From a virus (lineage: Duplodnaviria; Heunggongvirae; Uroviricota; Caudoviricetes): a stretch of 34,224 bases of DNA. Position numbers and translations under genes: made by a program. Below, piece after piece: positions 1,369-21,026 of this stretch. Location: IMG/VR virus record IMGVR_UViG_2563366968_000004, positions 1 to 34,224 of that record; one strand, written 5' to 3'. The notes beneath the pieces are model-generated. The model had not been told where the DNA came from. It ran no database searches and saw nothing but the letters and a program-made list of their open reading frames with translations. The stretch's first letter is position 1, and each line of letters begins with the position of its first letter.

Positions 1369-1444
1369 GCCGATATAGCTCAGTTGGTAGAGCAGCGCAT
1401 TCGTAATGCGAAGGTCGTAGGTTCGACTCCTATTATCGGCACCA
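1369..1444 (+). tRNA. thrW: tRNA-Thr (anticodon CGT), 76 nt with encoded CCA
   Basis: Cloverleaf readable: acceptor stem GCCGATA/TATCGGC, anticodon loop TTCGTAA with anticodon CGT at 1402-1404, T-arm GGTTCGACTCC. Sits directly downstream of proA, the known thrW integration hotspot. Confidence 0.9.
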
Positions 1445-1460
1445 TTCAAACATCTCCCCA

Positions 1461-1550
1461 AGTCTACTAAAGTCTTTCAAAACCCCTTATAATCCGCGTA
1501 TTAAAGCCCCGTTCGTCTTTTGACGTCTACTAAAGTCCCTCAAAATCTAC
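1461..1550 (+). repeat. Two direct copies of GTCTACTAAAGTC(T/C)(T/C)TCAAAA between tRNA and integrase (candidate integrase arm-type sites, attL region)
   Basis: Copies at about 1461-1482 and 1527-1548, read directly. Position between the tRNA 3' end and the int start fits recombination arm sites. Confidence 0.4.
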
Positions 1551-1556
1551 GGTCAG

Positions 1557-1609
1557 ATGGGGGTACTTATGGGGGTATTTGCTGTTCGGTTTAGTGGAGG
1601 TACCCCCAA
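1557..1609 (+). repeat. TGGGGGTA octamer repeats (2 direct, 1 inverted) immediately upstream of int
   Basis: ATGGGGGTACTTATGGGGGTAT at 1557-1578 and the inverted copy TACCCCCAA at 1601-1609. The same 22-nt motif recurs at 19754-19777. Confidence 0.4.
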
Positions 1610-2824
1610 GTGAAACTCAATGCCCGTCAAATAGACACAGCCAAGCCAAAAGAGAAGGCTTACAAGCTGGCCGATGGTGGCGGTTTGTATCTCTTGGTAA
1701 AACCTAATGGAGGTAAATACTGGCGACTTAAATATCGTGTAGCTGGTAAAGAGAAGCTATTGGCACTAGGTGTTTATCCTGAGGTTACTCTAGCCGATGC
1801 TCGGGCAAAACGTGAAGATGCGAAAAGAGGTATCGCTGGTGGTATCGATCCGATGGAAGCGAAACGAGAGGAAAAGATTGCCCGGGAAACGCAGTTAAAC
1901 AACACCTTCAAAGATATTGCCCTTGAGTGGCACAGCAGCAAATTAAAAAAATGGTCTGCTGGTTATGCTTCAGACATCCTCGAAGCCTTCAACAAAGATG
2001 TGTTCCCTTACATTGGCAAAAAACCCATCGCCGAAATCAAACCACTTGAACTTCTGAATGTGCTGCGTCGCATCGAGGGGCGCGGTGCTACAGAAAAAGC
2101 TAAAAAAGTGAGGCAACGGTGCGGGGAAGTTTTCCGCTATGCAATAGTCACTGGTCGCGCAGAGTATAACCCTGCACCAGACCTTACTAGCGCGATGCAA
2201 GGCCATGAATCTAATCATTACCCTTTCCTTACAGCCAAAGAATTACCTGATTTTTTCAAGGCATTGTCCAGTTACTCAGGAAGCGCATTGGTTGTTATGG
2301 CGGCTCGTCTACTGATTATCACCGGCTTGCGGACTGGCGAACTACGTGGCGCATTATGGGATGAAATTGATTTCAACAAGGCTATCTGGGAGATACCCGC
2401 TTCACGTATGAAAATGCGGCGGCCTCATATTGTGCCATTGTCTGAGCAGGCTCTTTCGCTTATTGGGAAGATTAGAGAAATAACAGGCAATTACCCTCTT
2501 ATGTTTCCCGGGCGCAATGATCCAAGGAAAACAATGAGCGAGGCCAGCATAAACCAAGTGTTTAAGCGCATTGGCTACGCTGGACGTGTAACTGGTCATG
2601 GGTTCCGGCACACTATGAGTACGATTTTGCATGAGCAGGGCTATAACACCGCGTGGATAGAAACGCAGCTCGCTCACGTTGATAAGAACTCAATTCGTGG
2701 CACATACAACCATGCGCAATATCTGGATGGAAGGCGGGAGATGCTTCAATGGTATGCCGACTATATGGATTCTCTCGAGCATGACGGAAATGTGGTGCAT
2801 ATGGTGTTTGAAAAACACGCATGA
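1610..2824 (+). CDS. int: Tyrosine-type site-specific integrase, P4-like (404 aa), GTG start
   Basis: N-terminal DUF4102-like arm-binding region (KLADGGGLYLLVKPNGGKYWRLKYR), C-terminal catalytic domain with R...HGFRHT...Y motifs. GGAGG 9 nt upstream of the GTG. Confidence 0.9.
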   Translation: MKLNARQIDTAKPKEKAYKLADGGGLYLLVKPNGGKYWRLKYRVAGKEKLLALGVYPEVTLADARAKREDAKRGIAGGIDPMEAKREEKIARETQLNNTFKDIALEWHSSKLKKWSAGYASDILEAFNKDVFPYIGKKPIAEIKPLELLNVLRRIEGRGATEKAKKVRQRCGEVFRYAIVTGRAEYNPAPDLTSAMQGHESNHYPFLTAKELPDFFKALSSYSGSALVVMAARLLIITGLRTGELRGALWDEIDFNKAIWEIPASRMKMRRPHIVPLSEQALSLIGKIREITGNYPLMFPGRNDPRKTMSEASINQVFKRIGYAGRVTGHGFRHTMSTILHEQGYNTAWIETQLAHVDKNSIRGTYNHAQYLDGRREMLQWYADYMDSLEHDGNVVHMVFEKHA

Positions 2825-2968
2825 AACAACTGGACAAGTATACAGAGGTTTACTAAAGTATAGGGGAGTAGATTGATAAAAACTCACAGAGGATTGCTAT
2901 TTAACAGTTAGCCCTGGAGAAGGGCAATCGCTCTTTTACAAACGAAGGTGTATTGAGCCTTCTACGTC

Positions 2969-3030
2969 GCTGACAAAGCGGAATGTTCTTTAACAGGCTT
3001 TGGCGCTGACAAAGCGCAATTGTTCTTTAA
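2969..3030 (+). repeat. Tandem direct repeat CGCTGACAAAGCG(G/C)AAT(G/T)GTTCTTTAA (2 copies) in the int-alpA intergenic region
   Basis: Read directly; likely regulatory site for the alpA/early promoter. Confidence 0.35.
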
Positions 3031-3252
3031 AACTACTGGATGTCACGCCTAATAGCGTGATCCTGCCGAAATGCAGGGTAGCTCTACCCTTGTGGAGCAA
3101 ACAAACCAAAACAATCTGACTATCTTTTATAAAAGACCGCAATATGTTTTTCATATTGTGGTCTTTGGCGTATTCGACATTTGACGCAAATAAAACTCTC
3201 GCCATTCGTTGCAGGAGGGGGTTATTGCGTCATTAGTACAGGATATTAATAA

Positions 3253-3456
3253 ATGGCTAATTACAATTCATTAATTCGTCTCTCTGAAGTTCAAAGGCGA
3301 ACTGGTTATAGCAAAGCATGGATTTATCGTCTTATTAGTCAGGGGAGGTTCCCTAAACAGGTAAAAATTGGAAGTCGGGCAATTGCTTTTGTTGAGTCTG
3401 AAATAGATGAATGGATTGAGAAGTGTATATTAGAATCTAGAGACGAGGTGGCCTGA
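3253..3456 (+). CDS. alpA: AlpA-family transcriptional regulator / excisionase-like (67 aa)
   Basis: Hallmark AlpA sequence (LIRLSEVQRRTGYSKAWIYRLISQGRFPKQVKIGSRAIAFVESEIDEWI). Int-AlpA pairing is typical of P4-like and PICI elements. Confidence 0.85.
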   Translation: MANYNSLIRLSEVQRRTGYSKAWIYRLISQGRFPKQVKIGSRAIAFVESEIDEWIEKCILESRDEVA

Positions 3457-3887
3457 TGGAAAAGAAAAACCGCCCATTACAGGCGGCTAATTCAGATATT
3501 CGTGTATCTGATGTTACGCCCCTTACAAAATCCCCTCAAGCACCAAAGCGCACACCGAAAAAGCATCGTGCCAGAGTCTATATGCTGCGTACTGGTATAG
3601 AGGGATGGACAGAAAATGACATTCTTCGCTACTGCCGTCTGTCTTCTGGTCGTAACTATGCAACAGAGTTAGAACGCCAGCTTGGAATCACTCTGGAGCG
3701 TATCGACGAAAAGAATCCTGATGGTATCGGAACACACCTTCGCTACCGTTTCTCCTGCCGTGGTGATGTTCTGAAAGTGATCACTCATATTAACCATCTT
3801 GCGAACATAAATGATCACAACGGACTTTCTCAGCAGGAAATTGCCGACATTCTGAAACTCTACCCGGACGCGTTTAACGCCGCCTAA
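3456..3887 (+). CDS. Hypothetical protein (143 aa)
   Basis: ATG overlaps the alpA stop (translational coupling); basic N-terminus; no family recognised. Confidence 0.55.
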   Translation: MEKKNRPLQAANSDIRVSDVTPLTKSPQAPKRTPKKHRARVYMLRTGIEGWTENDILRYCRLSSGRNYATELERQLGITLERIDEKNPDGIGTHLRYRFSCRGDVLKVITHINHLANINDHNGLSQQEIADILKLYPDAFNAA

Positions 3888-3899
3888 CGGAGACTGAAA

Positions 3900-4733
3900 A
3901 TGAACATCGAAAAAAGCAGATTAATTTCTGAGGCCGCCCCTCATCTGAACGCCTCTCTGGGCACAATTAACGGTAATGAATTTGCCGCAATTGTCCCGGT
4001 TATTCCTGGTCATATCGGTGGGCGTGAAACCAATATTGTTAGCGCAAAAGCGTTACACAAAGCGTTGGGCGTGGGAAAAGACTTCTCTACATGGATCACT
4101 GATCGCATCTCTGAATATGACTTCACCATTGGGCACGATTACTCAGTCCATAAAACTATTTCCCCAAATTTGGGGAAAATCCCGAATGGCGCGGCTTACA
4201 GCAAGATTAAGCAGTCTGGCAGACCCGGCAAAGACTATCTGTTAAGTGTCGGAATGGCGAAAGAACTGGCAATGATCGAACGCAATGATCAGGGGCGCGC
4301 TATCCGCCGTTATTTCATCCAGTGCGAGGAAGAATTACAGCGTAGCGTGCCTGAAATCGCCGCCCGCTATCGTCGCCAGCTAAAAGCCCGTCTCAGTGCC
4401 GCAAACAACTTTAAGCCAATGTGCGATGCGCTGAATATGGCCCGTGCCGAGATGGGTAAAACGACGCAGCAACACCACTACACAAACGAGAGCAATATGA
4501 TTTCTCGTATCGTTCTTGGTGGGCTAACTGCTAAACAGTGGGCGCGGATAAATGGCTATTCTGGCGAACCTCGCGACCATATGAACGCAGAACAACTTGA
4601 GCACCTCTCATATCTCGAAAGCACCAATATCACGTTAATTGATATGGGCATGGAATATGAGCAGCGCAAAGGAGAACTCACCCGACTGTCGCAACGCTGG
4701 CTCGCCAAGCGTCTGGAGGCGGTCAATGTTTAA
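3900..4733 (+). CDS. Phage antirepressor-like protein (Ant/KilA-C-like domain), 277 aa
   Basis: GGAG RBS; central region (DFSTWITDRI, LSVGMAKELAMIERNDQGRAIRRYF) resembles the phage antirepressor family. Confidence 0.55.
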   Translation: MNIEKSRLISEAAPHLNASLGTINGNEFAAIVPVIPGHIGGRETNIVSAKALHKALGVGKDFSTWITDRISEYDFTIGHDYSVHKTISPNLGKIPNGAAYSKIKQSGRPGKDYLLSVGMAKELAMIERNDQGRAIRRYFIQCEEELQRSVPEIAARYRRQLKARLSAANNFKPMCDALNMARAEMGKTTQQHHYTNESNMISRIVLGGLTAKQWARINGYSGEPRDHMNAEQLEHLSYLESTNITLIDMGMEYEQRKGELTRLSQRWLAKRLEAVNV

Positions 4734-4908
4734 GCCGACAGGAACACCACAACCTCAAAAACGCTACAAAGATGCCCACGGAGCACTCGTTACTGTCGAA
4801 AGCGTGTCTCACAACCGAGTGACGTTTTATCGCGACGGGTATCAATCGCCATGCGTACAACCGCTGGCGCGTTTCATGAAGGAGTTCGCGGAGGTTAACA
4901 AATGCTAA
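4726..4908 (+). CDS. DUF4222-like small protein (60 aa)
   Basis: ATG overlaps the previous stop. Pattern YKD-G-V-V...RV-FYRDGY-C-PL-F-F-E matches the small phage protein family that recurs at 26264-26485. Confidence 0.5.
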   Translation: MFKPTGTPQPQKRYKDAHGALVTVESVSHNRVTFYRDGYQSPCVQPLARFMKEFAEVNKC

Positions 4909-5930
4909 CCGTCCAGAAGAAGACATTTTCACTGGCTGGTATGTCGCCAAAATCCAGCAATATGACAGCAAAGTCAGGCATTAATACAGCAGATACAAGC
5001 AAAGTTTATCATTTGCTGGTGGTAGGAGCGGATGCCTTAACTATGTCAGAAATTACGGTCGATGGTGTTAGCGTTGAGAAGGTCAGCGGCTGCGCCAGAG
5101 AATTTCTGGTCGTAGATCACCTGTTCTGCTCGTGTAGTGACTCCACAAAAACATTCGTCCACGTGCGTGACGTTAACGAAATGAGCGCGATGTATTGTGC
5201 ATCTGGTGCTTCCAATAGTGAGTTTTCGGAGTCCATAAAAAAGAGCTTGCCGTTATGCGGCAACACGGTTTATGGTTATAAGGCACCTCATAAAACGGGT
5301 GCCGGGATTAGGACCCCGCAGGCAATCGAGGCGATACATGACGCGCCAGCGTCTTTTTTTGTATCGGCGCACACGCACACCTTATCAATGGTGGGCTGTA
5401 TGGGGCTGACTTCGGTCAGGCTGGTTTCCTTGATTGCCAGTAGTCCTAACCCTGTACAGTCCACCGCCAGCGAGCTTAGGACCTCCGGCGGTGGCTATAA
5501 ACCATCAATCAAGGAGGCTGCCACATGCTGGCTACTACCCCTACCCAAAAACCGCAATTTATCTGGATTATCGCCGCAGTTCGCCGCGATTGCCCGACAA
5601 TTACCGCCAAAATTCATCATATTGCTGCCGAGTCTGAACGCGATGCTCGCCGTTCTCTGGTGCGCGATCACGTCTGCTTTTTTGCTGGTCGTATCCGCAT
5701 GGAGGTGGCACATGATTAAAACCTACGATGTGCATATGGATCCCCTCGAACGCACAAGCCAGATCATCACACTGACAGAAGTGATTAACGACATTCTGGT
5801 GAGCAACTCTCCCTCACGAGACGAAAGGCTGAAGGCGTTACTCGCGATATTGGATCTCGCCGTTCGTGACGTTCATTTCCTGCTGGAAGGTGGACAAATG
5901 CCAGTAAAAACGGGGGCAACCAATGAATAA
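4902..5930 (+). CDS. Hypothetical ORF (342 aa as one frame); probably a composite, the central part looks non-coding in this frame
   Basis: ATG overlaps the upstream stop (ATGCTAA). The N-terminal ~150 aa and the C-terminal 72 aa (from the internal ATG at 5712, with GGAGG RBS) look protein-like; the middle is Leu/Pro/Ser-rich and overlaps better ORFs in other frames. Confidence 0.3.
5525..5719 (+). CDS. Hypothetical small protein (64 aa)
   Basis: Strong AGGAGG RBS 7 nt upstream of the ATG; translation is protein-like. Confidence 0.4.
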   Translation: MLATTPTQKPQFIWIIAAVRRDCPTITAKIHHIAAESERDARRSLVRDHVCFFAGRIRMEVAHD

Positions 5931-6117
5931 CTCAATTAATACCCCTCGCCTTACGTCCGCACTTCAATTAATCGAGCAAGCAGCGGCTGTCCTGGTTGCT
6001 GTCAGTCTTTCGGCTGAAGAAATGGACGCTGCTGATGTCGTGGATGCGATTAAAGCGTGCTCATCTTTGGTTAACGATGCCCGTGCCGAGCTGGTAATTC
6101 TTGGGGGTGAAAAATGA
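5923..6117 (+). CDS. Hypothetical small protein (64 aa)
   Basis: ATGA start/stop overlap within a chain of coupled small ORFs typical of satellite/phage early operons. Confidence 0.5.
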   Translation: MNNSINTPRLTSALQLIEQAAAVLVAVSLSAEEMDAADVVDAIKACSSLVNDARAELVILGGEK

Positions 6118-6377
6118 ATATCAACTTAATTTATCGTCATCCGTGTGAGCTGGAAATTGAATCATTGCTGGGGCGCGAAGAGCCATATCCAGACACATTC
6201 ACTCCCGCAGATTGCGCGACTGAACGGCTTACCAGAGCGCGCACAGGTCTGGTTCATGTGATGAATGAGATTGTTCCCTCGGTGGGAGGGGAACAGGCGA
6301 CAGTAATCAATAGCTGGCTACAAAAAGTTACCTCCCTGATAGATATCGGTTTAATCGATGTGGAGAGTGCGAAATGA
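6114..6377 (+). CDS. Hypothetical small protein (87 aa)
   Basis: ATGA overlap coupling with the neighbouring ORFs. Confidence 0.5.
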   Translation: MNINLIYRHPCELEIESLLGREEPYPDTFTPADCATERLTRARTGLVHVMNEIVPSVGGEQATVINSWLQKVTSLIDIGLIDVESAK

Positions 6378-6595
6378 CCAACATCCAGCTCATTGAAGCG
6401 CAATGTCGCATCGAACAGGTTCAGACTGTTTTAGGGTTCTGGCTTGAAGGGGCCAGCCCCAGCAACAGAGACAAGTTAATGATTGGCGCGGTTATGTCAC
6501 TGCTCAATGGCGTACCAGAAGCTATTCAGGAAGCGGACGAATTGTTGGGCAAATATGAGTTACAGAATCATTCAGGCGAGGCGAAACATGAATAA
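6374..6595 (+). CDS. Hypothetical small protein (73 aa)
   Basis: ATGA overlap coupling with the neighbouring ORFs. Confidence 0.5.
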   Translation: MTNIQLIEAQCRIEQVQTVLGFWLEGASPSNRDKLMIGAVMSLLNGVPEAIQEADELLGKYELQNHSGEAKHE

Positions 6596-7190
6596 TTTCT
6601 TAACTTTCCATGCAGAAGCAACGCCTGACGGCGTAAACATCATGTACCGCAGCAACGATGGCATGACAGAACGCGTTGAGGCCGTCTCATATATTGATGC
6701 CGTAAATCGTCTGGATGCCGGGGATTATGACGATAAACCAGATGAAGGCATGTTTATACATCTCGCTATTGCCAGTGGCGGCAACCAGGGATATTTCGAT
6801 TACACATCACAGCATCACGTGATTATGTGGCGCTGGCTGATAGCAACAGCATTCATCAATGAAATGAGAAAGGAAAACGGCACCGTCAGCATTATTGATG
6901 ACAGTGGCAATCATTCCGTGGTTTCTGTTTATTCCAATGGCATCGTCGCCATGCCGCTGTATCCAGTAGCAGAGCGCCTCGCTATGGCAAACAACATTGA
7001 GGGCGCAATGATCGAGAAATATGGTGTTGATGTCGGAACAAAGAATGCCATCATTTTTTACAGCAACATGTTCGATGTCGAACAGGGAACACTCACTTCG
7101 TTTGGGCGAGAAGTGCTTGCCGATCTTCACAACAGCTTTATTGCCGAACTAAACGAAAACGGCATCCCAGAAGCACCAGTGACGCACTAA
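6588..7190 (+). CDS. Hypothetical protein (200 aa, start at internal ATG 6588)
   Basis: ATG at 6588 overlaps the upstream stop by 8 nt; the longer ORF from 6483 begins with an implausible N-terminus. Confidence 0.5.
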   Translation: MNNFLTFHAEATPDGVNIMYRSNDGMTERVEAVSYIDAVNRLDAGDYDDKPDEGMFIHLAIASGGNQGYFDYTSQHHVIMWRWLIATAFINEMRKENGTVSIIDDSGNHSVVSVYSNGIVAMPLYPVAERLAMANNIEGAMIEKYGVDVGTKNAIIFYSNMFDVEQGTLTSFGREVLADLHNSFIAELNENGIPEAPVTH

Positions 7191-7202
7191 ACGGGGGCCA
7201 GA

Positions 7203-9554
7203 ATGCGAAACATTGATCTTATCCGTCAGGTTATCAGTGCGTCTGAAAACAACTGGCCTCATGTGCTGGGCTGCCTGAACATAAATGTCCCTGACTCTCC
7301 GCGCCGTCATGCTCCCTGCCCTGCATGTGGGGGCAAAGATCGATTCCGGTTCGATGACAACGGGCGCGGTAGCTTCATCTGTAATCAGTGCGGCGCTGGT
7401 GATGGGCTGGATTTAATTAAACGCGTAAATAACTGCGACACAACAGAGGCGGCGCTTCTTGCCGCTGATGTTCTGGGTATTGATTACCGGACAACGGAAA
7501 CACCAGAAGCCACCAGCCAGAAACGGGAACAACTGGAAACCGAGCGCCAGCGACGCGAACAGGAGCGCCTGAAAAGGGCAGAGAAGGACGAACAACAAAG
7601 ACGGGATACGTTTTCCCGTCAGTTTGATGACATGCGCAGAAAGGCTGTAAACGGCAAATCTGATTATCTGGTTGCGAAAGGGGTAGGTGATTTTACATTC
7701 CCCGTGTTGCCCGATGGATCTCTGTTGCTGGCGCTGGTGGATAAATCCGGCGCAGTCACAGCAGCACAGACTATTACCCCACATGGTGAAAAAAGACTCC
7801 TGACAGGTTCGGCAAAGCGGGGGGCATATCACGCCATAAACGCACAGAAACGACCTCACAGCATCATAATTGCTGAGGGGGTGGCTACCGCCCTGTCGTG
7901 CCATTTAATTCGCCCTGACGCAATGACAGTGGCAGCAATCGACGCTGGCAACCTGTTGCCAGTAGCGGAAGTCATGCGCAGAACATATCCGCAGGCACAA
8001 ATAATCATTGCCGCAGATAACGATCACCAGCAAGGAGACTCAGAAAGTGGAGGGATCAACACGGGGAAAGATGCCGCAGAGAGGGCCGCTATTTCCGTAG
8101 CTGGCAGGGTGTCTCTGCCACCGACTGACTATAAAGCCGACTGGAACGACTATCACCAACAACACGGGCTGGCGGCAGCCACAGCAGCATTTAAAGATTC
8201 GATGTACCAGCCACGGGGGAAAGGGGCGCAGGTGAAAAATCACAAACAGTCAGTCGGGGCGCTGAATGAGATCAGTTCTGGCGAGGTGTTAAGCGATGAT
8301 GAAATTGCTGTCCTCGAAGAAATCAACCGGACGTTTACGCATGTCACCATCGGCGGGAAACACAAGGTGGTGTCGCTAAAGCCTTCTCAAACCGGCGGTG
8401 TATCGCACGTTTTCGAGGATTTATCACAATTTCAGCATTATTTTCATCATAAACCGAGAGTCGCCAGAAAGCTGGCGGGATCGGCGTGGCTGTCATGGAG
8501 TGGGAAGAACTACAAGCCAGGAGGCGTAGGATTTTATCCAGTACCAGACAAATGCCCTGACGATGTTTTTAATCTGTATGAGGGGCTGGCACTGGAACCA
8601 ATTGAAGGAGATTGCACGGTATACCTTAATCACCTGTTGCAGGTTGTCTGTGCCGGTAATGAAGAGGCATGCCAATATCTTATCCAGTGGATGGCGCACA
8701 TTATCCAAAAGCCTGATGAAAAACCGTCCGTGGCAATCGTGATGAAATCTGTCCCGGGCACAGGGAAAGGCACAACGGTTAAACCGCTGCTGCAAATACT
8801 GGGGCAGTACGCCGCCCACATTAACGGGGCGGGACATATTTCAGGGCGCTTCAATTCAATACTTGCTAACAAGCTACTGGTATTTGCTGACGAAGTGACG
8901 ATCCACAAGCCGTCTGAAGCTGACAGACTTAAAGCGATTATTAGCGAACCGACGTTTAACCTTGAGCGCAAGGGAATTGATGCTGAACCAATGCCGAATT
9001 TTGCCCGGTTGATATTTGCCAGTAACAGCACACAGGTATTACAGGCAGGGATAAGAGAGCGTCGCTATCTCGTGCTTGAGCCATCTCCTGAAAAAGCACA
9101 GAGCCGGGAGTATTTTGATCGGCTGTACAGTTGGCTTAATGATGGCGGTGCCGCAAAGTTGCTTTGGCATCTTAAAGGGGTGGATCTCTCAGGTTTTGAC
9201 CCTCAACGAGCGCCACAGACCGATGCCTTACGTGAAGAAATCTTGCTGGGGCTGTCTGGCGTTGAATTGTTTCTTTATGGCGAGCTAATCAATGAACCTC
9301 CGTTTAATGGCGAAGTCCGTTTGTTTGCAAAGGATATGGTTAGTCGGTTTGTAGCGTGGTCGCTTGAGCGTGGGGAAAAGCTTAAAGAACCAGCTGCCAG
9401 ATCACTACTGGGTAAATCACTTGCACAAATGGGGCTGGTGAAGCATGGAAGACCAGACCGAGGGAATGGCGTGTTCTACGAACTACCAGAGGTCGGAGTT
9501 CTACAGGCTGCGTTTGCCCGTCTGATCGGTATGGGGGGTTATGATGTTTTTTAA
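7203..9554 (+). CDS. Primase/helicase replication protein (zinc ribbon + TOPRIM primase + SF3/D5-like NTPase), 783 aa
   Basis: CPACGG...CNQCG zinc ribbon, TOPRIM-like IIIAEGVATAL...AADND, Walker A VPGTGKGT and Walker B LVFADEV; same domain logic as P4 alpha and PICI pri-rep. Confidence 0.9.
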   Translation: MRNIDLIRQVISASENNWPHVLGCLNINVPDSPRRHAPCPACGGKDRFRFDDNGRGSFICNQCGAGDGLDLIKRVNNCDTTEAALLAADVLGIDYRTTETPEATSQKREQLETERQRREQERLKRAEKDEQQRRDTFSRQFDDMRRKAVNGKSDYLVAKGVGDFTFPVLPDGSLLLALVDKSGAVTAAQTITPHGEKRLLTGSAKRGAYHAINAQKRPHSIIIAEGVATALSCHLIRPDAMTVAAIDAGNLLPVAEVMRRTYPQAQIIIAADNDHQQGDSESGGINTGKDAAERAAISVAGRVSLPPTDYKADWNDYHQQHGLAAATAAFKDSMYQPRGKGAQVKNHKQSVGALNEISSGEVLSDDEIAVLEEINRTFTHVTIGGKHKVVSLKPSQTGGVSHVFEDLSQFQHYFHHKPRVARKLAGSAWLSWSGKNYKPGGVGFYPVPDKCPDDVFNLYEGLALEPIEGDCTVYLNHLLQVVCAGNEEACQYLIQWMAHIIQKPDEKPSVAIVMKSVPGTGKGTTVKPLLQILGQYAAHINGAGHISGRFNSILANKLLVFADEVTIHKPSEADRLKAIISEPTFNLERKGIDAEPMPNFARLIFASNSTQVLQAGIRERRYLVLEPSPEKAQSREYFDRLYSWLNDGGAAKLLWHLKGVDLSGFDPQRAPQTDALREEILLGLSGVELFLYGELINEPPFNGEVRLFAKDMVSRFVAWSLERGEKLKEPAARSLLGKSLAQMGLVKHGRPDRGNGVFYELPEVGVLQAAFARLIGMGGYDVF

Positions 9555-9581
9555 TATAGTCTTTTTACAAGAAGATCGTTT

Positions 9582-9690
9582 TTACCTGTACCACCTATAC
9601 CACTTTGCTAATTCAGTATTAAAAACAATGTGTTATAGTGGTACAGGTCAATATCTTACCTATACCAGACCTGTACCACCTATACCATTA
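9582..9690. repeat. Iteron cluster CCTGTACCACC(TATACCA) (2 direct copies plus an inverted GGTACAGG copy); candidate ori
   Basis: Copies at 9584-9601, 9632-9644 (inverted) and 9671-9688, immediately downstream of the primase gene. Resembles P4 type-I iterons (TGTTCACC). Confidence 0.5.
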
Positions 9691-9730
9691 ACAAACGCAT
9701 TTCTTCTGGCTGGCTGAGAGGGAACAGCCA

Positions 9731-9961
9731 ATGATGAGCACACCATTTTACAAAGTGCGCCAGTTAGCTTCTTCCTCTGGCTGGCAGCTACGGTTTGAGG
9801 GGCGTTCAGACTGGCTACCCATTGCGGCATGGGCGAATGTTGAAATGTGTATTGACGGCGATACCGTTGAAATCATTATTCCCTGCGTGGCAAGTCGGGA
9901 CGGCTGTATAGAGCCAACAGATATGGCAGCAGAAATCAGAGAGGTAAAACATGAACAATAA
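9731..9961 (+). CDS. Hypothetical protein (76 aa)
   Basis: ORF with purine-rich RBS, lying between the two iteron clusters. Confidence 0.5.
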   Translation: MMSTPFYKVRQLASSSGWQLRFEGRSDWLPIAAWANVEMCIDGDTVEIIIPCVASRDGCIEPTDMAAEIREVKHEQ

Positions 9962-10688
9962 CTATTGCATACCGCAGGGAATGACCAGAACGGAGCGCGA
10001 AGAATTAAAAAGTTTCGCTACACAGTGCGGGAATGCTGGCGACATCCAAAGTCTGGAACGCACTTTAATTATGATTGCGCACTGGATGCGTCAGGGGCAA
10101 AGGGTTTCATTTACTGAATATGCCAGCCAGTGGACAGAGGCACAGCGCGAACGGAGCGACGGTAATCACTCAACACCCGAAATGGCGAAGCAATGGCCTT
10201 TCAGTGGTAAACGCTGTATCAGTCCCGGTGGTTCAGATTATTACCCTGCTGGTGTGGGAGATGAGCCATGTTGTGACGAGACTGAAATCCGCCACGCAGT
10301 GACAGTAATTACCGCTGAATACCCACAATTTAACCTTGACGGACTGGCGCTCCACAACCGGAATGCGGACTGGGAAAACCCGCTTGATAACCCGTCATTT
10401 ATCGTATCGGCGAAAAGCTGCCTGAGATGGATCAGAGACAACGGGATGAGTAATGCCCAGATTGAGAGCTTCCCGCAGGATAACCCCACATCTGACACGT
10501 TGAAGCATGAAGTGGAGCGATATAACCAGATAAACCACCAGCACAGTGATCACCCGCACTATATCCCCAACGGAGCATTTATTGCGGCGATGGTGGCAAG
10601 CGGCTACAAGGTTAAGCCAGCGGGAAGAATGAACGCATTTTTCAATATTTCAAAAAAAGGATTATGTGCTGCTATGGGTAAAAATTAA
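9951..10688 (+). CDS. Hypothetical protein (245 aa)
   Basis: ATG overlaps the upstream ORF; no family recognised. Confidence 0.55.
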   Translation: MNNNYCIPQGMTRTEREELKSFATQCGNAGDIQSLERTLIMIAHWMRQGQRVSFTEYASQWTEAQRERSDGNHSTPEMAKQWPFSGKRCISPGGSDYYPAGVGDEPCCDETEIRHAVTVITAEYPQFNLDGLALHNRNADWENPLDNPSFIVSAKSCLRWIRDNGMSNAQIESFPQDNPTSDTLKHEVERYNQINHQHSDHPHYIPNGAFIAAMVASGYKVKPAGRMNAFFNISKKGLCAAMGKN

Positions 10689-10691
10689 ATA

Positions 10692-11464: not shown

Positions 11465-11468
11465 ATTT

Positions 11469-15040: not shown

Positions 15041-15058
15041 CTGGTTAGCCATGGATGG

Positions 15059-15478
15059 CTAATTTTTGTTCTTTGCTCTCATCCATAGGTAAAGAAGGGA
15101 AAGAACAAGACAAAAAACAGAGAATAGATAACCTACCTCATATGGTGCGCCAAAAAAATTAGCTATTGATACGGGCAAAAAAGCTGAAGCGATCAAAATT
15201 GAAAGGCAAAAAATAAGCCCAGTAATATAGTTTATTAAATTCTTAAATGAGAAACGTTTTGCTTGATTTACGGTCTTAACGAACGATCGCTTAACGACGG
15301 ATAAAAGCAAATAGATGGCGACAGTTGCTAATGCCCCTTTCCACCAGTCTGGATATAGTTTTGCGACAATCAGACCAAGTAAAACCATGATGACAGCCTG
15401 AGCATTCACACCAACCCTCCCTTTAGCTTTGTTTAGAATGGCAATCATCATATATCCAAGACATGGCATTTGGTACAT
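15059..15478 (-). CDS. Small integral membrane protein (139 aa, about 4 TM helices), convergent to the 701 aa gene
   Basis: Four hydrophobic segments in the translation; stop is 18 bp from the stop of the 701 aa gene. Start codon uncertain (several in-frame Met, no strong SD). Confidence 0.6.
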   Translation of the reverse strand: MYQMPCLGYMMIAILNKAKGRVGVNAQAVIMVLLGLIVAKLYPDWWKGALATVAIYLLLSVVKRSFVKTVNQAKRFSFKNLINYITGLIFCLSILIASAFLPVSIANFFGAPYEVGYLFSVFCLVLSLLYLWMRAKNKN

Positions 15479-15595
15479 AGCTTGGGTCGGGATTTCAAAT
15501 CCGCTCCCAGTTGATGGGGCCGTTACAGTACGCGCATATCCGCTTTATGTGAAACAGGAAGATTTTTCTGATATCACTGCCACAGCAAAACACCA

Positions 15596-15618
15596 ATTTC
15601 GAGACAAGTACGCGCGCG
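15596..15618 (+). repeat. Direct repeat copy A: ATTTCGAGACAAGTACGCGCGCG
   Basis: One of three copies of ATTT(C/T)G-GACAAGTACGCGCGCG (also 15880 and 18178); contains alternating CG. Related degenerate copies at 15525-15543 and 15659-15680. Confidence 0.4.
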
Positions 15619-15879
15619 AGGGGTATCAGTTGCAAAAAATTTTGCAACTACGTCCGACCAGTACGCGCACGATGGAGGGGAGTACCATAAAACTGTTCTC
15701 TACATAAGTCAGAGTAGTGGTGATGTGTTGATTATCGGCGTATATGCGCACAGGACGCGCTATGACGATGTTTTATGCGGGTACACCAATCACATGTATC
15801 TGGTGTGATAAATCGCGTTACATGACCTCTCATGTTGTGCTGGTGGTTATCACGACTTTCTGAATCTGGCCTTTGCCTG

Positions 15880-15908
15880 ATATTTTGCGACAAGTACGCG
15901 CGCGTAGC
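15880..15908 (+). repeat. Direct repeat copy B: ATTTTGCGACAAGTACGCGCGCGTAGCA (contains 12-bp palindrome TACGCGCGCGTA)
   Basis: Read directly; lies about 380 bp upstream of the Abi gene. Confidence 0.4.
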
Positions 15909-16283
15909 ATCGAAATTATCGGATGGCGTATGCTGCTGGCAATATGAAGACCGATAGTATTAACCGAAAAGCGATTAAGGAGTGCCAACTTTTCAGTAGA
16001 GAAACTAGCCAGCATAGGAAAATGTAGAAATTACCCAATTAATAGGTAAAAGTTATTGACACAGCCTGTAGTGGATAACGATATGAATAAAAACCACATA
16101 TAGTGGTTTTTCGTGAGTGATGATAGTACCTATGTTAGTTTCCTAAGTAACTGTGCATTGACATGTGGATAACTTCGGATAGAGTTACACTCAACTGAGC
16201 CCGGCCCCCTGGCTTTATCTTGTCTTAGATGAGAAATTGTTATGGCCGGGCCTTCTTGTATCTGGAGGTAGGAAACCTTTTGT

Positions 16284-17246
16284 ATGGCTGTTCCGGTTAA
16301 GGTTCATAAAGAATATGATGAACTTGTCGATTTATTGCTGTCTCGGGGTATGGATGTGCCAGATCGCGAACATGCTATCAAGAAAATCTCACAAGTAGGC
16401 TACTACCGATTATCAGGCTTTTGGTACCCCTGCCGAATCCCCCATATAACAACAGACAATATTAGAACCAGACTCGATCAGGTTCGTCCAGGTACTAATT
16501 TTCGCGCAGTATATGACCTCTATTTATTCGATAAAAATCTGCGTTTGCAGATGATGAATGCGTTAGAACGCATTGAGGTTTATGTTCGGTCAGTTATTGC
16601 TCATGAGCTTGGTAAGATATCTCCTTTAGCATATCTTGATGACTCGCTAATAAATCCAAAACACTTTAGACCACGTTCCCATGGTCGCCCAAGCGCCAGA
16701 GAAGAATGGATAAATAAACATAATGCCGAGATTGCTAAAAGTCGCGAAGACTTTATCAAATGGCATGAAAACAAGTACGAAGGTCTTCCTTTCTGGGTGG
16801 TTATTGAAGTGTGGGACTTCGGCTTAATGTCAAAGTATTATGCGATGCTAAAAGACAGCTATCGCAACAGGATACTATCTAGGCTAGGGATAGCGGCAGG
16901 CAATGGAGCTATCTTCCAAAACTGGCTTAGCGCAATGAATGTGCTAAGGAATCGGTGCGCTCACCATTCACGCATCTGGAACAAGGTCAACGAACCAAGA
17001 TTAATGCCTTTGCCAAATGAGCCGTACTTTGAACAATTAAATATGAATGATGATGCGTACGAAAGAATGTACGGAATGATCGCTGTGTTATGGTTTTTAG
17101 TGAAAAAAATTGGACCGGGATCTGACTGGATAAAAAAAGTTGCCAACCTTGTAGATAACAAGCCTAACTTACCAGGATGTAACCTGACAGCCATGGGATT
17201 ACCTGATAATAACGGTTTCCCAAGGCATTTATTTGATATTGAATAA
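16284..17246 (+). CDS. Abortive infection protein, Abi_2 family (AbiD/AbiF-like), 320 aa
   Basis: N-terminal region (LLSRGMDV..., QVGYYRLSGFWYP, VYDLYLFDKNLRLQMMNALERIEVYVRSVIAHE) matches the Abi_2 family pattern. AT-rich gene with a roughly 800 bp AT-rich leader. Confidence 0.8.
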   Translation: MAVPVKVHKEYDELVDLLLSRGMDVPDREHAIKKISQVGYYRLSGFWYPCRIPHITTDNIRTRLDQVRPGTNFRAVYDLYLFDKNLRLQMMNALERIEVYVRSVIAHELGKISPLAYLDDSLINPKHFRPRSHGRPSAREEWINKHNAEIAKSREDFIKWHENKYEGLPFWVVIEVWDFGLMSKYYAMLKDSYRNRILSRLGIAAGNGAIFQNWLSAMNVLRNRCAHHSRIWNKVNEPRLMPLPNEPYFEQLNMNDDAYERMYGMIAVLWFLVKKIGPGSDWIKKVANLVDNKPNLPGCNLTAMGLPDNNGFPRHLFDIE

Positions 17247-17247
17247 A

Positions 17248-17703
17248 TTATAGCGATGGCGCTGAATGTAGCGCCACTGATAACTTTTCAGCATTGCTTC
17301 CCTGACGCTTCCACGCGCTGTAAATATCTTTATCCCATGCCTTACCAGCTTTTGTTTGATAGCCTGCTTCATTGATCCGTTCAGCTATCACGCGCCCATT
17401 ATCAAATCCCTGTCGGATGGTATCGGCAATGATCTTTATAACTGCCGTTTCGTTATATGGCTTTGGTGGGATGTTCGGCTTTCCGGCAATAAGCGACGCA
17501 GCGGCTTTTTCCATGCGCTCCACCAGCCCAAGCATTCGTGAATCAATAGACTTTTCCGGCTGTCCCAGCTTCATGCGAATCGCATCAACAAGCCAGGAGG
17601 TTTTATCCCCTCCAGAAGCGAGAACAGACCGATTAAACTCATCCTGCAATTCAGATGGGATGCGGAACGCGACCAGATTAGATTTGCTCATTGCAAAGAC
17701 CAT
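17248..17703 (-). CDS. Putative DNA-binding protein with N-terminal ribbon-helix-helix-like motif (151 aa)
   Basis: N-terminus NLVAFRIPSELQDEFNRSVLASGGDKTSWLVDAIRMKL resembles the CopG/Arc RHH fold; stop is 1 bp from the Abi stop (convergent). Confidence 0.55.
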   Translation of the reverse strand: MVFAMSKSNLVAFRIPSELQDEFNRSVLASGGDKTSWLVDAIRMKLGQPEKSIDSRMLGLVERMEKAAASLIAGKPNIPPKPYNETAVIKIIADTIRQGFDNGRVIAERINEAGYQTKAGKAWDKDIYSAWKRQGSNAEKLSVALHSAPSL

Positions 17704-17715
17704 ATCAGTGAGTAA

Positions 17716-17750
17716 TATCCATACAGTATACCACTGTATAACACTGTTAT
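17716..17750. promoter_or_regulatory. Operator-like palindromes in the divergent promoter region (TACAGT-N5-ACTGTA and GTATAACA-C-TGTTATAC)
   Basis: Perfect inverted repeats read directly between the divergently oriented RHH-like and PerC-like genes. Confidence 0.3.
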
Positions 17751-17855
17751 ACGCTCAAATATCAGCCAGAAAATAACGGACCAATCACAAAGCTATCGCT
17801 GTGTTGTTGGTTCAGAGCTGGGCTGTGTTGGTTCAAAATAATCTGAGAGGCAGAA

Positions 17856-18137
17856 ATGATAAGGGACAGGAAAGCTGAAGAGCTGGAGTCAAAAGGGCTA
17901 TACCGGAGAGCTGCCGCACGATGGATGGAAGTCATGCTGTTATGCACCGAGGACGATGATCGGGAATGGATAAAGCGCCGCCGTGAAACGTGTCTGGAGA
18001 ACGTGAAGCGCCCGCCCGTGAAGGTTGAGGACTTTGGCGACCTGCATAAAGCTGTTACCGAAACGCAACACCGCATGGGGATAGCGCAACCGAACGGTAA
18101 CGCCTTCCGGTTAAATGGCGGCAAGAGGCAAAGGTAG
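17856..18137 (+). CDS. PerC-family transcriptional regulator (93 aa)
   Basis: Signature ELESKGLYRRAAARWMEVML is characteristic of the PerC family. Confidence 0.7.
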   Translation: MIRDRKAEELESKGLYRRAAARWMEVMLLCTEDDDREWIKRRRETCLENVKRPPVKVEDFGDLHKAVTETQHRMGIAQPNGNAFRLNGGKRQR

Positions 18138-18177
18138 ACCACCAGAGGGAAATCATCCTCTGGCTGGCGGTTTCTGG

Positions 18178-18208
18178 TATTTCGGGACAAGTACGCGCGC
18201 GCGTAGCA
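18178..18208 (+). repeat. Direct repeat copy C: ATTTCGGGACAAGTACGCGCGCGCGTAGCA (14-bp palindrome TACGCGCGCGCGTA)
   Basis: Same motif as 15596 and 15880; copies B and C bracket the Abi/RHH/PerC module. Confidence 0.4.
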
Positions 18209-18434
18209 CCCAATCGGTGAGGAAATAGCGGCGACCTGAATGGTCAAAATCACAACGCAGCTATCCCCGTAAGCAGCGCTTAACGGAATAGCAGTAACCT
18301 GAATCCAGTGGGGAGGGGGTAGTCAAATCTCTACAGCCCTGACTATCCGGGACTGCCCGCCCCATCGTTTTTTTATACCCGCGAAAAATGAAATTTAATC
18401 CGGGCGTGTTTCATCCTTCCAGAGGGTATGACGT

Positions 18435-18620
18435 ATGACACCACGCGAAATAGCCTTATTGACCATCGCCAAACTTGAGCACGGAGGCCACCAGCTTACA
18501 CAGGCAGATCAACGGGAGATAGAACGATCAGTTAATGCCGATATAGCCCGGCGCGACAGGTTCCGCGAAATGATGCGAGCACCTGCCTACCAGTGGAAGA
18601 AGCCAGCGCCGCGCAGGTAG
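18435..18620 (+). CDS. Hypothetical small basic protein (61 aa)
   Basis: ORF with GAGGG RBS; no family recognised. Confidence 0.35.
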   Translation: MTPREIALLTIAKLEHGGHQLTQADQREIERSVNADIARRDRFREMMRAPAYQWKKPAPRR

Positions 18621-18740
18621 ATATGGGATTATTCCACATGTAACTTATGCGTATTAAGCAAATTTCCTTTATTCACCTTTACAGAATTGTGAGTACGTCA
18701 GTATCGTTATCCTTCCGATTCGCATTTATTCAGGATTTGC

Positions 18741-19283
18741 ATGTACCAGCTAAAGATAACCATCCGAGACAGCAAACCACCTATATGGCGGCGTGTGCTG
18801 GTTCCAGAGCAAATCCCCTTTAGTAAACTTCATGCCGTGATCCAGTTAGCTTTTGGCTGGAATGACGAACACCTGTATATGTTCGAGAAAGGGCGTAAAG
18901 GTGATCCAGGTAGCGAGTATCGCGTATGGGGTGAGGATGAAAGCATGGGTAACGCGGCAATCACGCCACTATGGGCGGCGCTCCAGAATGAGGGTGACAA
19001 GCTGGTTTACACGTATGACTTTGGCGACTGGTGGGATTGCGTCATTGTGCTGGAGAAGCAAACACACGATACGAGTAATCAGCCCATTAGCTGCCTGCGT
19101 GGGAAAGGCACCACCCCGGCGGAAAACTCAGGCGGCTTGCATGGTTACAATGAATTGCTATTACAGGCCAGAGAGTCTGATAATCCTGAGCAGGCCGAGA
19201 TCCACAATTTCCTGATGCTGGATATTGAACGCCGGGTTTACGACCTGAGCCGCATCAACGACAGATTGCAGGCTATTTACTGA
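18741..19283 (+). CDS. Plasmid pRiA4b ORF-3-like family protein (180 aa)
   Basis: N-terminal LKITIRDSKPPIWRRVLVP...FGWNDEHLYMF and the YDFGDWWD motif resemble the pRiA4b ORF-3 family; assignment from memory. Confidence 0.6.
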   Translation: MYQLKITIRDSKPPIWRRVLVPEQIPFSKLHAVIQLAFGWNDEHLYMFEKGRKGDPGSEYRVWGEDESMGNAAITPLWAALQNEGDKLVYTYDFGDWWDCVIVLEKQTHDTSNQPISCLRGKGTTPAENSGGLHGYNELLLQARESDNPEQAEIHNFLMLDIERRVYDLSRINDRLQAIY

Positions 19284-19635
19284 CCCGCATGTATTCACCT
19301 GATATTGCGTTGTCAGCGCCGCCAGTATCGCGCATAACAGCGCACTGACCGGGTAAACCGTAGCGCACGACCGTTGCGTTAGTATCACCGCCGCGCCGTA
19401 TCTGGCGCGATTCATACACTGTCACCCGCTCAAGCAGTCCACCAGCAACCATGCTTTCCAGTGTGCGCCGGGTTGATTCGAGCTGGTGACGCTTATCGAA
19501 CGACACCATGCCATGAAGCAGGTAGGCCACACCCGACACATCGAACGGCGGCGCACCAATCTCACCAGTCACCCATTCGAGGTTATCCGGTTCAAAGTAG
19601 CTAAGTATCTCTTTTTTGCGACTGGTCATTCTCAT
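19273..19635 (-). CDS. Hypothetical protein (120 aa), convergent and overlapping the pRiA4b-ORF3-like gene by 11 nt
   Basis: Clean ORF; no family recognised. Confidence 0.45.
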   Translation of the reverse strand: MRMTSRKKEILSYFEPDNLEWVTGEIGAPPFDVSGVAYLLHGMVSFDKRHQLESTRRTLESMVAGGLLERVTVYESRQIRRGGDTNATVVRYGLPGQCAVMRDTGGADNAISGEYMRVSK

Positions 19636-19753
19636 GGCTGGCTGATTCCTTATTGTGGGATAGCACTATCATACAATAAGTGGGTTAAAGGGAGAGCGTT
19701 ACCGCCTGATATGCTGTATGAATAACAACCAAATTTCAGGGGCGGAAAAAGAT

Positions 19754-19777
19754 ATGGGGGTACTTTTGGGGGTATCT
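19754..19777 (+). repeat. Second copy of the ATGGGGGTACTT(A/T)TGGGGGTAT motif at the satellite/prophage junction
   Basis: 21 of 22 positions identical to 1557-1578; lies in the AT-rich gap between the last satellite gene and the lambdoid integrase. Confidence 0.4.
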
Positions 19778-19862
19778 ATAAAAAATGAACAATAAAAAAG
19801 GCAACAAAAACAAAGATTATCGCCTATGTGTATTGTTCCTATTATCCATTTAAATCAATAAG

Positions 19863-21026
19863 TTACACATCATTAGTACCTTCCTTATTTTTTGACTGGG
19901 ACAAATTTGGGACCGATGGGTTCAGGATCGAGTCTATTTGCCGTGCGTGTTCGGTAAGGTGATTAGGTGCAAGGTGAGCATATCGACGAACCATTTCGAT
20001 AGACTCCCAGCCTCCCATTTCCTGTAACACTGACAACGGGACTCCGGCTTGAACCAGCCAGCTTGCCCAGGTGTGTCTCAAGTCGTGAAATCTGAAATCA
20101 TCAATACCAGCCCGTCTCAGCGCCGCTTTCCAGGCTGTGTTTGCGTCATACCGCATCTTCCTGACCGTTGGCGCTTTCGTTCCGTCTGGTTTGGTACAGC
20201 TTTCCTTGTACACAAATACCCAACGGTGATGATTCCCGATTTGTTTTTTCAATACGCGACATGCAGTATCATTCAGCGCAACGCCAATTGCGCGGTTTGA
20301 TTTACTCTCTTCCGGGTTTATCCATGCCACCCGGCGCTGCATGTCTATTTGTTGCCATTCAAGGTTGATGATGTTCGAGCGTCTTAAGCCTGTTGCCAGT
20401 GCAAATTCAACAACAGACTTTAATGGCTCCGGACATTCATCAATCAGCCTTTGTGCTTCATGGGGCTCCAGCCAGCGGATCCGTTTATTCTTTGGTTGAG
20501 GCACTTTAATAATTGGTGCCTTATCCAGCATTTTCCATTCACGCTCTGCGGCTCTTAGTAGGGCCTTTATAAATGAAAGATGCGTAGCCTTTGTTGCAAC
20601 GGACGCTGGTTTTGGCATGTATTCTGGAACAGGTTTCCCTTTTTTTCTGCATGCTTCTGCCCTGAGTTTCCAGTTTTCCTCATGACGCCGGTTCGTCATT
20701 TTCTGCATTGCTGAATAAATTTTTGATTCAGTAATGTCTCTTAGTTGCATTCCTGCGAAATGTTGAAGCCAGAATCCGATCCGGCTTTTGTCATCGTCCA
20801 GTGATTTTTTATGTGCTTTCTCTTCGAGCCACCTGATACACGCCTCCTCGAACGTCATATCAGGTATTTCACCAAGTTTGCTGACCCGCCATGCTTCAGC
20901 CTTTAGCTTGTCATGGAGCTCTGTCGCCTGCCTTTTGTCCTTTGTTCCAAGAGACTGTTTAAATCTTTTACCGTTCGGCAATGTGAAACTGGCGTACCAT
21001 ATTTCACCTCTGCGGAAGAGTGACAT
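19863..21026 (-). CDS. intR: Lambdoid prophage tyrosine integrase (Rac IntR-like), 387 aa
   Basis: Translation recognised as closely related to Rac-type IntR ([46 protein letters not shown]..., ...[18 protein letters not shown]...RYAHLAP). Confidence 0.9.

Follow-up and report, generated by a model that had tools for sequence, protein, structure and literature searches.

Two mobile elements stand in tandem at thrW in a 34,224-nt stretch of DNA from a tailed virus (IMG/VR record IMGVR_UViG_2563366968_000004, positions 1 to 34,224; hereafter the window), and the locus raises the question of what a 22-nt motif found at both ends of the first element represents, and how the two elements came to be neighbors. 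The first element is a satellite-like island that begins in thrW, and the second is a lambdoid prophage. A previous sequence-only reading of this DNA had proposed that the motif copies are arm or regulatory sites shared by both ends of the island; it had found no second copy of the thrW 3' end, had left open the exact junction and the order in which the elements arrived, and had pointed to possible consequences of the pairing for co-induction and mobilization. Our analysis makes one joint explanation highly probable: that the motif copies are the island's own P4-type arm sites, that the right attachment site of the island (attR) is present and carries a small deletion, that the prophage integrated first, and that no helper-satellite link between the two neighbors is needed to account for the tandem.

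The motif copies have the layout of P4 attachment-site arms

The tandem itself was recovered as described: an island with a P4-family integrase gene (int), alpA, a primase gene and iteron-like repeats is followed by a lambdoid prophage with its int on the opposite strand (Table 1). In the window, the 22-mer ATGGGGGTACTTWTGGGGGTAT has exactly two copies, at 1557-1578 and 19754-19775, each on the + strand, and the motif form ATGGGGGTACTT(A/T)TGGGGGTAT is restricted to the same two places. In 100 dinucleotide-preserving shuffles the 22-mer had no match, even when up to three mismatches were allowed. Both copies are intergenic, the left one lying between thrW (1369-1444) and the island int (1610-2824), and the right one between an open reading frame (ORF) of 120 aa (19273-19635, - strand) and the prophage int (19863-21026, - strand). 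The presence of a shared motif at both island ends was thus borne out, and no gene covers 19754-19777, a point that the sequence-only reading had singled out. Each 22-mer consists of two tandem 12-bp repeats with the core TGGGGGTA, and copies of this 8-mer lie at 1558, 1570, 19755 and 19767 (+ strand) and, inverted, at 1601 (- strand); a stray copy at 22121 is within chance expectation (about one 8-mer match per 2 x 34 kb).

Counted from the first base of the heptamer TATTATC in thrW, at which we place the crossover (see below), the five cores lie at -85, -73, +127, +139 and +170, the last being the inverted copy. These five offsets are shared by the window, by STW0522-31 (a genome with the island only) and by an island copy that sits in srkA. 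For comparison, the GenBank record of phage P4 (NC_001609) annotates 'attP arm sequence repeats' with the core TGGGGGCA, which, read in the int orientation, stand at -82, -70, +127, +139 and +168, the last again inverted and placed over the int start codon (the P'-side repeats are annotated at 3942-3965 of that record, with the inverted counterpart over the P4 int start at 3915-3926). P4 and the island are therefore alike in having two tandem 12-bp repeats per arm plus one inverted copy over the int start, at positions that agree within 3 bp, and in having arm cores that are equal in seven of eight bases (TGGGGGCA and TGGGGGTA, respectively, i.e., CA versus TA). Their integrases, which both carry an arm-binding domain, are 42% identical over the full length (405 aa), and in both elements the identity block is formed by the last 17-20 nt of a tRNA gene. 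They differ in their target, leuX for P4 and thrW for the island, and in that the island is without P4 sid, psu and delta and carries other cargo. The P4 arm repeats were reportedly first described by Pierson and Kahn in 1987.

Two other islands at thrW could be compared in the same way. L007, a genuine P4-like satellite in which psu and delta are present, carries GGGGGCA at -82, -70, +127, +139 and +170, and L006 carries TGGGGGCA twice, plus an inverted copy, in the one arm that is visible. The TA/CA difference is uniform across all copies of an element (TGGGGGTA five times in the window, and GGGGGCA five times in both L007 and P4), as is expected of sites that are read by one protein. Judged by their layout and homology, the 22-mers represent the arm-type sites on the P and P' arms of the island's phage-type attachment site (attP) and are homologous to those of P4, in agreement with what had been proposed for them. 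As a feature, then, the motif is already known in kind, combining P4-type attP arm repeats with a known form of tRNA damage at attR.

Arm sites of this sort follow the principle of phage lambda, whose heterobivalent tyrosine integrase binds arm-type sites on both sides of the core (P1, P2 and P'1-P'3) with its N-terminal domain. The lambda sites differ from those of the island in sequence, number and spacing, and the lambda int gene does not overlap the lambda arm sites. A doubled motif has also been described in helper-embedded phage-inducible chromosomal islands (HE-PICIs), 81 bp upstream of the attP centre and, as a co-oriented copy, 132 bp downstream of it (Williams lab 2023, PMC10111431). 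The motif centres of the island lie at about 78 bp upstream and 134 bp downstream, yet the motif sequences are different (TGTATTGC in the HE-PICIs and the core TGGGGGTA in the island), and the published motif was found only in helper-embedded PICIs, whereas the window island is chromosomal and sits at a tRNA gene. An island located between yicC and yicG (L014) has the same body as the window island, together with an unrelated integrase (29% identity) and a different doubled motif, GTGTACATA, which has the 12-bp spacing and is present at both ends. In this island (strain 723_010814_2_1), the doubled motif is located at 3290-3320 and 23265-23295, and inverted ATGTACA copies were observed near the int start. 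The comparisons with L014 and with the HE-PICIs both favor the reading of the 22-mers as arm-type sites.

The island ends at a damaged copy of the thrW 3' end

The sequence-only reading had not found a second copy of the thrW 3' end and had suggested aligning the window against it. A search with the tRNA 3' 25-mer, allowing up to three mismatches, recovered thrW alone, whereas the 10-mer TCCTATTATC from the thrW 3' end recurs at 19837; this match, together with comparison with other genomes, located attR. A second copy does therefore exist, as a partial one with a 5-nt deletion (19837-19848), and searches with the tRNA 3' end fail because the acceptor-stem part of the attR fragment is deleted. 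With this, the junction that had been left open was placed.

The deletion at attR always begins directly after TATTATC and measures 5 nt in the window, 4 nt in L002, and 1 nt in L003, L005 and L007. Variable-length acceptor-stem deletions in the tRNA fragment at attR have been published, exclusively in PICIs, for several tRNA genes including Thr, and they too start at a fixed position of the acceptor stem (PMC10111431). In losing GGCAC, the tRNA fragment at the window's attR shows the acceptor-stem 'damage' for which PICI/P4-type integrases are known. Excision of the island from the window's genome would leave thrW without these five bases.

To delimit the crossover, we made use of the island copy inserted in srkA (strain FDAARGOS_1255); it is the same island, 96-99.8% identical wherever the two share sequence. 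Its attL reads GATCGA-TATTAT-CGGCACCATTC and its attR GTTCC-TATTAT-GCCACCGAC; since TATTAT is all that the two have in common, strand exchange can be placed within the heptamer TATTATC. This copy (L004, 19369-40292) has the same integrase and splits the protein-coding srkA at a secondary site, GATCGATATTATGCCACCGAC, which resembles the thrW core. The predicted attP (...GTGTATTGTTCCTATTATCGGCACCATTCAAAC...) is present as a joined junction in an IMG/VR contig (L016, IMGVR_UViG_2617270975_000009), where, at 9590-9900, the right and left ends of the island are joined without a deletion and the motif pairs are 212 bp apart. This junction may represent a tandem pair of islands or an excised circle, and either way it confirms the island ends. 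The specific reading as an excised circle was set aside, as the contig starts in a multi-copy insertion sequence (IS) element with more than 120 matches and circularity cannot be claimed. Overall, the island extends from about 1438 to 19846 (18.4 kb) and lies in the 3' end of thrW.

Each element is also found alone, and the prophage is likely to have arrived first

We surveyed 5426 complete Escherichia coli genomes for the two elements. Strain D3 (L001) has the phage only, with thrW running directly into the sequence that starts at window position 19846, and island-only genomes are represented by L002, L003 and H141. Of the island-only genomes, STW0522-31 is 99.9% identical to the window over positions 1-19866; here, as in Z1323HEC0399, the motif-bearing right end of the island and the partial tRNA copy are followed by native chromosome. 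Each element thus occurs alone at thrW, and the sequence-only reading, which had considered whether the two are ever separable, was right in treating them as separate elements in tandem. Their internal junction is a hybrid, in which the P arm and crossover heptamer of the island are joined to the thrW-proximal sequence of the prophage.

The prophage sequence from 19846 onward has matches in Shigella phages SfII, SfIV and SfV as well as in several lambdoid coliphages, and the prophage integrase shares 90% identity with P22 Int; the late genes and far attR of the prophage lie beyond the window. In SfII, the 46 nt that make up the 3' half of thrW are part of attP, and the core marked in the P22 record, ATGCGAAGGTCGTAGGTTCGACT, corresponds to thrW nt 38-60 (window 1406-1428). 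While the window prophage shares the Int and the left end of this P22/SfII/SfV/SfIV thrW module, the internal junction keeps only TCCTATTATC..CA, i.e., 12 nt of the 46-nt block, because the island inserted between thrW and the prophage. The segment corresponding to thrW nt 38-60 is missing at the junction, leaving no site there for a P22-type Int, and we infer from this that the prophage integrated first and that the island then entered the copy of thrW regenerated at the prophage attL. This order of events would yield thrW-island-[remnant]-prophage, as in the window. Had the island been first, the phage would have entered an intact thrW, giving thrW-phage-[46 nt]-island, an arrangement that could equally be reached phage-first, by entry of the island into the 46-nt copy at the prophage attR. 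As the reverse arrangement can be reached both ways, only the window's arrangement is diagnostic of arrival, and the question of order, which had been left open, would be answered in favor of the prophage.

The opposite arrangement, thrW-prophage-[46 nt]-island, was found in 148 of the 5426 genomes by a full match to a chimeric probe (SfII P arm, 46 nt and island P' arm) and was confirmed in ECNB21-M121 (L012, 20001-20171). In this common arrangement, the island lies just past the late-gene end of the prophage, and in situ headful packaging could sweep it up. The window's arrangement was found in one complete genome only, CP131_Sichuan (98.3% identity), where the deletion is 1 nt long instead of 5 nt and the prophage body is a different, IS1-truncated one, and which hence represents an independent event; the exact junction of the window occurs in none of the complete E. 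coli genomes. With two integrases acting at separate sublocations of thrW, such a tandem is nothing out of the ordinary.

Integrase as the probable reader of the arm sites, and alternative explanations

In line with the homology to P4, we infer that the arm sites are bound by the N-terminal domain of the island Int. This assignment draws on the arm-binding domain of the protein, on the P4 precedent, on the presence of the repeats in L006 without AlpA/Vis, and on the conservation of GGGGGCA in elements whose helix-turn-helix (HTH) proteins have diverged. In the mechanism that we propose, the N-terminal domains of an Int tetramer would bind the arm sites while the catalytic domains bind the core, and the resulting arm-core bridging would give the integrative and excisive complexes. 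Integration splits attP, placing the P' sites next to thrW and int (1557-1608) and leaving the P sites at the opposite end of the island (19754-19777), and this is why the motif brackets the island. The passage of PMC2951348 that cites Piazzolla 2006 states that P4 Int represses int by binding near the int transcription start. The three sites beside the start of the island int suggest a similar autoregulation, in which Int probably represses its own gene.

Several points weigh against this explanation. A scan of 1380-1680 detected no sigma-70-like promoter between thrW and int, so that the case for autoregulation by Int is one of analogy (a scan of the right arm, 19550-19900, was also without a match). 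The HE-PICI paper leaves open whether its doubled motif is bound by the Int arm domains, by AlpA or by another protein (PMC10111431), and AlpA of the island and Vis of P4 are homologous (39% identity), for which reason sequence comparison does not cleanly separate Int from AlpA as the binder. The five-base deletion at attR could postdate integration. Finally, the argument on arrival order assumes that a P22-type Int needs its annotated core, and also that the junction was not made by homologous recombination with another genome.

The uncertainty over the binder leads to an alternative that we regard as rather unlikely, namely that the doubled repeats bind the AlpA/Vis-type regulator or some other regulator of the island, controlling the direction of excision or the transcription of int. 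Besides being named as a possible binder of the equivalent HE-PICI motif, AlpA is encoded by the island itself (3253-3456), and in L014, where Int is strongly different, alpA differs too (36% identity), so that the two proteins are not separable there. On the other hand, the sites occupy both arms at conserved offsets and include an inverted copy at the int start, which is the annotated layout of the P4 attP arms. L006, whose Int is related, keeps the repeats while no AlpA/Vis homologue was found within 20 kb, an observation that discriminates weakly. P4, L006 and L007 share GGGGGCA, yet their small HTH proteins are only 32-50% identical over short stretches, whereas 57-60 of the 88 residues in their Int arm domains are the same. 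In addition, a separate pair of repeats is available for an excisionase at 1460-1545: GTCTACTAAAGTC (...CAAAA) is restricted to 1462 and 1525, between the att core and the arm sites, and has positional counterparts of differing sequence in L006, L007 and P4. These repeats may be candidate sites for the excisionase or for a host factor.

As for the position of the 22-mers, direct repeats that bracket an island, one near int and the other before the next element, are the usual signature of attL and attR, and the copies could in principle be the recombination core sites themselves, generated by insertion into a pre-existing motif, for example in the spacer between thrW and the prophage int. We consider this hardly credible. 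Phage-only lysogens run from thrW straight into window position 19846 and onward without the motif, the 22-nt motif (including its core TGGGGGTA) is missing from the SfII attP, and the thrW, srkA and joined-attP copies of the island all hold both motifs internally, at fixed distances from TATTAT(C); the phage-only lysogens, the srkA copy and the joined junction in L016 rule the 22-mers out as recombination sites. Equally at issue is whether the tandem forms a functional helper-satellite unit, in which the island targets thrW, or is retained there, because the prophage mobilizes it, and in which the two are co-induced. The same two types of element are adjacent in about 149 of the 5426 genomes, and the AntA-type antirepressor and AlpA of the island might react to a resident prophage or act upon it. 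Nonetheless, such a unit seems quite improbable, as both elements are common alone (the island int region in 638 genomes and the prophage int region in 1118) and their co-occurrence is near chance, with about 149 observed against about 131 expected (638 x 1118 / 5426) in a count that is not corrected for phylogeny. Moreover, the island body is found at other sites, in srkA with the same integrase at a secondary site and at yicC-yicG with another integrase, and its ejection genes (see below) match the alleles of P22-like podoviruses. Prophages with this int/attP module include myovirus-type SfV/SfII-like phages, and the one that stands beside the island in ECNB21-M121 combines a contractile tail with a head of the HK97 type, while the sole other genome with the window's arrangement, CP131_Sichuan, holds a truncated prophage remnant. 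The co-induction and mobilization that the sequence-only reading had raised thus found no support, and a helper-satellite link between the two neighbors is neither needed nor indicated.

Table 1. Features of the island, of thrW and of the adjoining prophage end, with positions in the window
Feature	Position	Strand	Basis or remark
thrW, tRNA-Thr(CGU), intact, forms island attL	1369-1444	+	ARAGORN; Rfam tRNA model
Identity block of island attL/attR, TCCTATTATCGGCACCA; crossover heptamer TATTATC at 1431-1437	1428-1444	+	thrW nt 63-69, T-stem/acceptor-stem junction
Second direct-repeat pair of the int-side (P') arm: AAGTCTACTAAAGTCTTTCAAAA at 1460-1482, ACGTCTACTAAAGTCCCTCAAAA at 1523-1545	1460-1545	+	putative excisionase (AlpA/Vis) or host-factor sites
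P'-arm doubled arm-type repeat, two 12-bp units, core TGGGGGTA	1557-1580	+	+127, +139 from heptamer
Fifth, inverted arm-type repeat, TACCCCCA at 1601-1608	1597-1608	-	ends 1 nt before int GTG start at 1610
Island integrase, P4-family tyrosine recombinase with N-terminal arm-binding domain	1610-2824	+	Pfam Arm-DNA-bind_3 (1.4e-28), Phage_int_M, Phage_integrase
AlpA/Vis-type excisionase-regulator	3253-3456	+	Pfam Phage_AlpA 7.4e-20; 39% identical to P4 Vis
isrK-like RNA	5283-5359	+	Rfam, 63 bits, above gathering score
C4 antisense RNA	5384-5471	+	Rfam, 80 bits, above gathering score
Primase-helicase: Zn ribbon, Toprim, DUF5906	7203-9554	+	Pfam, PHROGs; N-terminal half 33% identical to P4 alpha
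Iteron-like ACCTATACC repeats, about five, directly downstream of primase gene	9584-9687	+	Tandem Repeats Finder
gp20-like gene	11457-12935	+	Pfam Inj_translocase 6.8e-85; 56% identical to P22 gp20
gp16-like gene	12935-15040	+	phrog_770; 30% identical to P22 gp16
Right-hand cargo block: Abi_2, PerC, pRiA4b ORF-3, 120-aa ORF	16284-19635		Pfam; STW0522-31 RefSeq annotation
Abi_2	16284-17246		Pfam
PerC	17856-18137		Pfam
pRiA4b ORF-3	18741-19283		Pfam
120-aa ORF	19273-19635	-	
P-arm doubled arm-type repeat, two 12-bp units, core TGGGGGTA	19754-19777	+	-85, -73 from heptamer
Island attR, the internal tandem junction: TCCTATTATC then CA	19837-19848	+	five acceptor-stem bases GGCAC deleted
Prophage left end, contiguous with thrW in phage-only lysogens	19849-21337	-	P22/SfII-type int 19863-21026, xis 20903-21337

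Gene and RNA content of the island

The island holds a P4-family int, an AlpA/Vis-type gene, an alpha-type primase gene and a C4-family antisense RNA, and it is without sid, psu and delta, the genes for capsid size and late control that belong, with int, alpA, the alpha primase gene and epsilon, to a P4-like satellite in the strict sense. When its proteins were compared with P4 by tblastn, int and the N-terminal half of the primase were the only matches, and searches against Pfam and PHROGs gave no match to Psu, Sid or Ogr/Delta among the island proteins, whereas L007, also at thrW, has psu and delta. As in Gram-negative PICIs, co-oriented int-alpA-...-primase genes stand at the left end, the length of 18.4 kb is far below that of a phage, and attL and attR could be mapped. 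With the P4-like and Gram-negative PICI classes of SatelliteFinder, the island shares int, alpA, the primase, the C4-family RNA and defence-type cargo (Abi). Capsid-forming PICIs (cf-PICIs) and 'elongated' PICIs contain captured phage late genes, and the island likewise holds a late-gene block. It differs from these satellites in having no sid, psu, delta, capsid, terminase or packaging-redirection genes, its captured genes being those for P22-type ejection proteins.

An AntA-type antirepressor and an Ash-family protein are also encoded by the island (Pfam/PHROGs). The isrK-like and C4 RNAs (Rfam families RF01394 and RF01695, matched at 5283-5471) lie within the annotated 'ash' ORF (4902-5930), a call that may be partly spurious. 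C4-family antisense RNA is known as a system of phages P1 and P7, and the P4 CI immunity RNA is related to C4. In the island, stretches complementary to the C4 RNA are found in isrK and at 5506, as in C4/ant-type antisense control. The repeats at 9584-9687 are placed like the P4 crr region and would be a candidate replication origin; copies of GGTACAGGT/ACCTGTACC in both orientations at 10690-10800 are further candidate origin elements. In the right-hand part of the island, GAC(A/C)AGTACGCGC(G/A)CG occurs four times in non-coding stretches between cargo genes (15603-15618, 15656-15671, 15887-15902 and 18184-18199), and part of this repeat set lies within a segment that is conserved between island variants (15484-15969).

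A cassette of P22-type ejection-protein genes

The sequence-only reading had described the satellite as having no virion genes. This did not hold, as homologues of the P22 ejection proteins gp20 and gp16 are encoded at 11457-15040 (phrog_917 and phrog_770). The sister islands at srkA (L004, 30020-35188) and at yicC-yicG (L014, 14730-19388) carry gp14/gp7/gp20/gp16-like sets, whereas the window island has the gp20- and gp16-like genes only, and the segments on either side of the cassette are conserved from one island variant to another. Within IMG/VR, about a dozen loci pair island genes with the cassette, and a contig scan with the gp20-like protein gave two loci only, one being a partial sister island and the other a Citrobacter prophage.

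P22-like proviruses that contain portal, coat, gp4, gp10, gp26, gp14 and gp7 (L017, L023-L028) have a gp16 that is 94-99% identical to that of the island, while their gp20 alleles are 51-88% identical to the island's. Comparison of island-borne with phage-borne alleles gave ratios of nonsynonymous to synonymous substitution rates (dN/dS) of 0.13-0.16 for divergent pairs; one near-identical pair gave 0.38, with too few substitutions to be informative. The values for the divergent pairs indicate purifying selection.

Regarding the expression of these genes, the region upstream of them showed no similarity to the P22 late region, nor to the window prophage, SfII or P4, that would indicate a lambdoid/P22 late promoter (PR'/qut-like). 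A terminator-like hairpin lies upstream of the ejection genes (11166-11195), and a 22-nt repeat, AGTTTT(C/T)(G/A)GAGTCCATAAAAAA, was observed both ahead of the isrK/C4 region (5221-5242) and ahead of this hairpin (11115-11136). The segment 10889-11439 is 93% conserved in the srkA island though the cassette alleles differ, and it may be a control region. Regulation of the cassette by the C4 RNA was considered and judged unconvincing, given a single 12-nt complementarity inside the gp20-like gene, of which about 0.08 are expected by chance.

Late gene capture by PICIs in general has been published, and a search of the literature accessible to us found no description of satellites with ejection or injection proteins. 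We tentatively entertain the possibility, short of an even chance, that the island represents an undescribed lineage of P4-related satellites, marked by an exchangeable cassette of P22-type ejection genes. If so, the helpers would be P22-like podoviruses rather than the neighboring prophage, and the satellite would itself provide the proteins that deliver its DNA, a strategy of piracy that we did not find described. The cassette might then serve to match or bypass superinfection exclusion in recipient lysogens, or to spoil the virions of the helper.

Implications

For the island, the analysis provides limits to the base pair for attL, attR, the crossover heptamer and the arm sites, which is mainly a tidying of the annotation, and it explains why searches with the tRNA 3' end fail at such islands. 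Tandems at thrW can be read by a simple rule: a P22-type Int acts at nt 38-60 of the gene and a P4-type Int at nt 63-69, so that thrW-island-phage would mean that the phage is the earlier arrival. More broadly, P4-related islands that differ in cargo keep the arm-site layout of P4 to the base pair, and this layout makes it possible to delimit such islands automatically. Of greater interest is the lead opened by the cassette, that of a widespread family of E. coli islands in which P4-type modules for integration, immunity and replication are combined with P22-type ejection genes.

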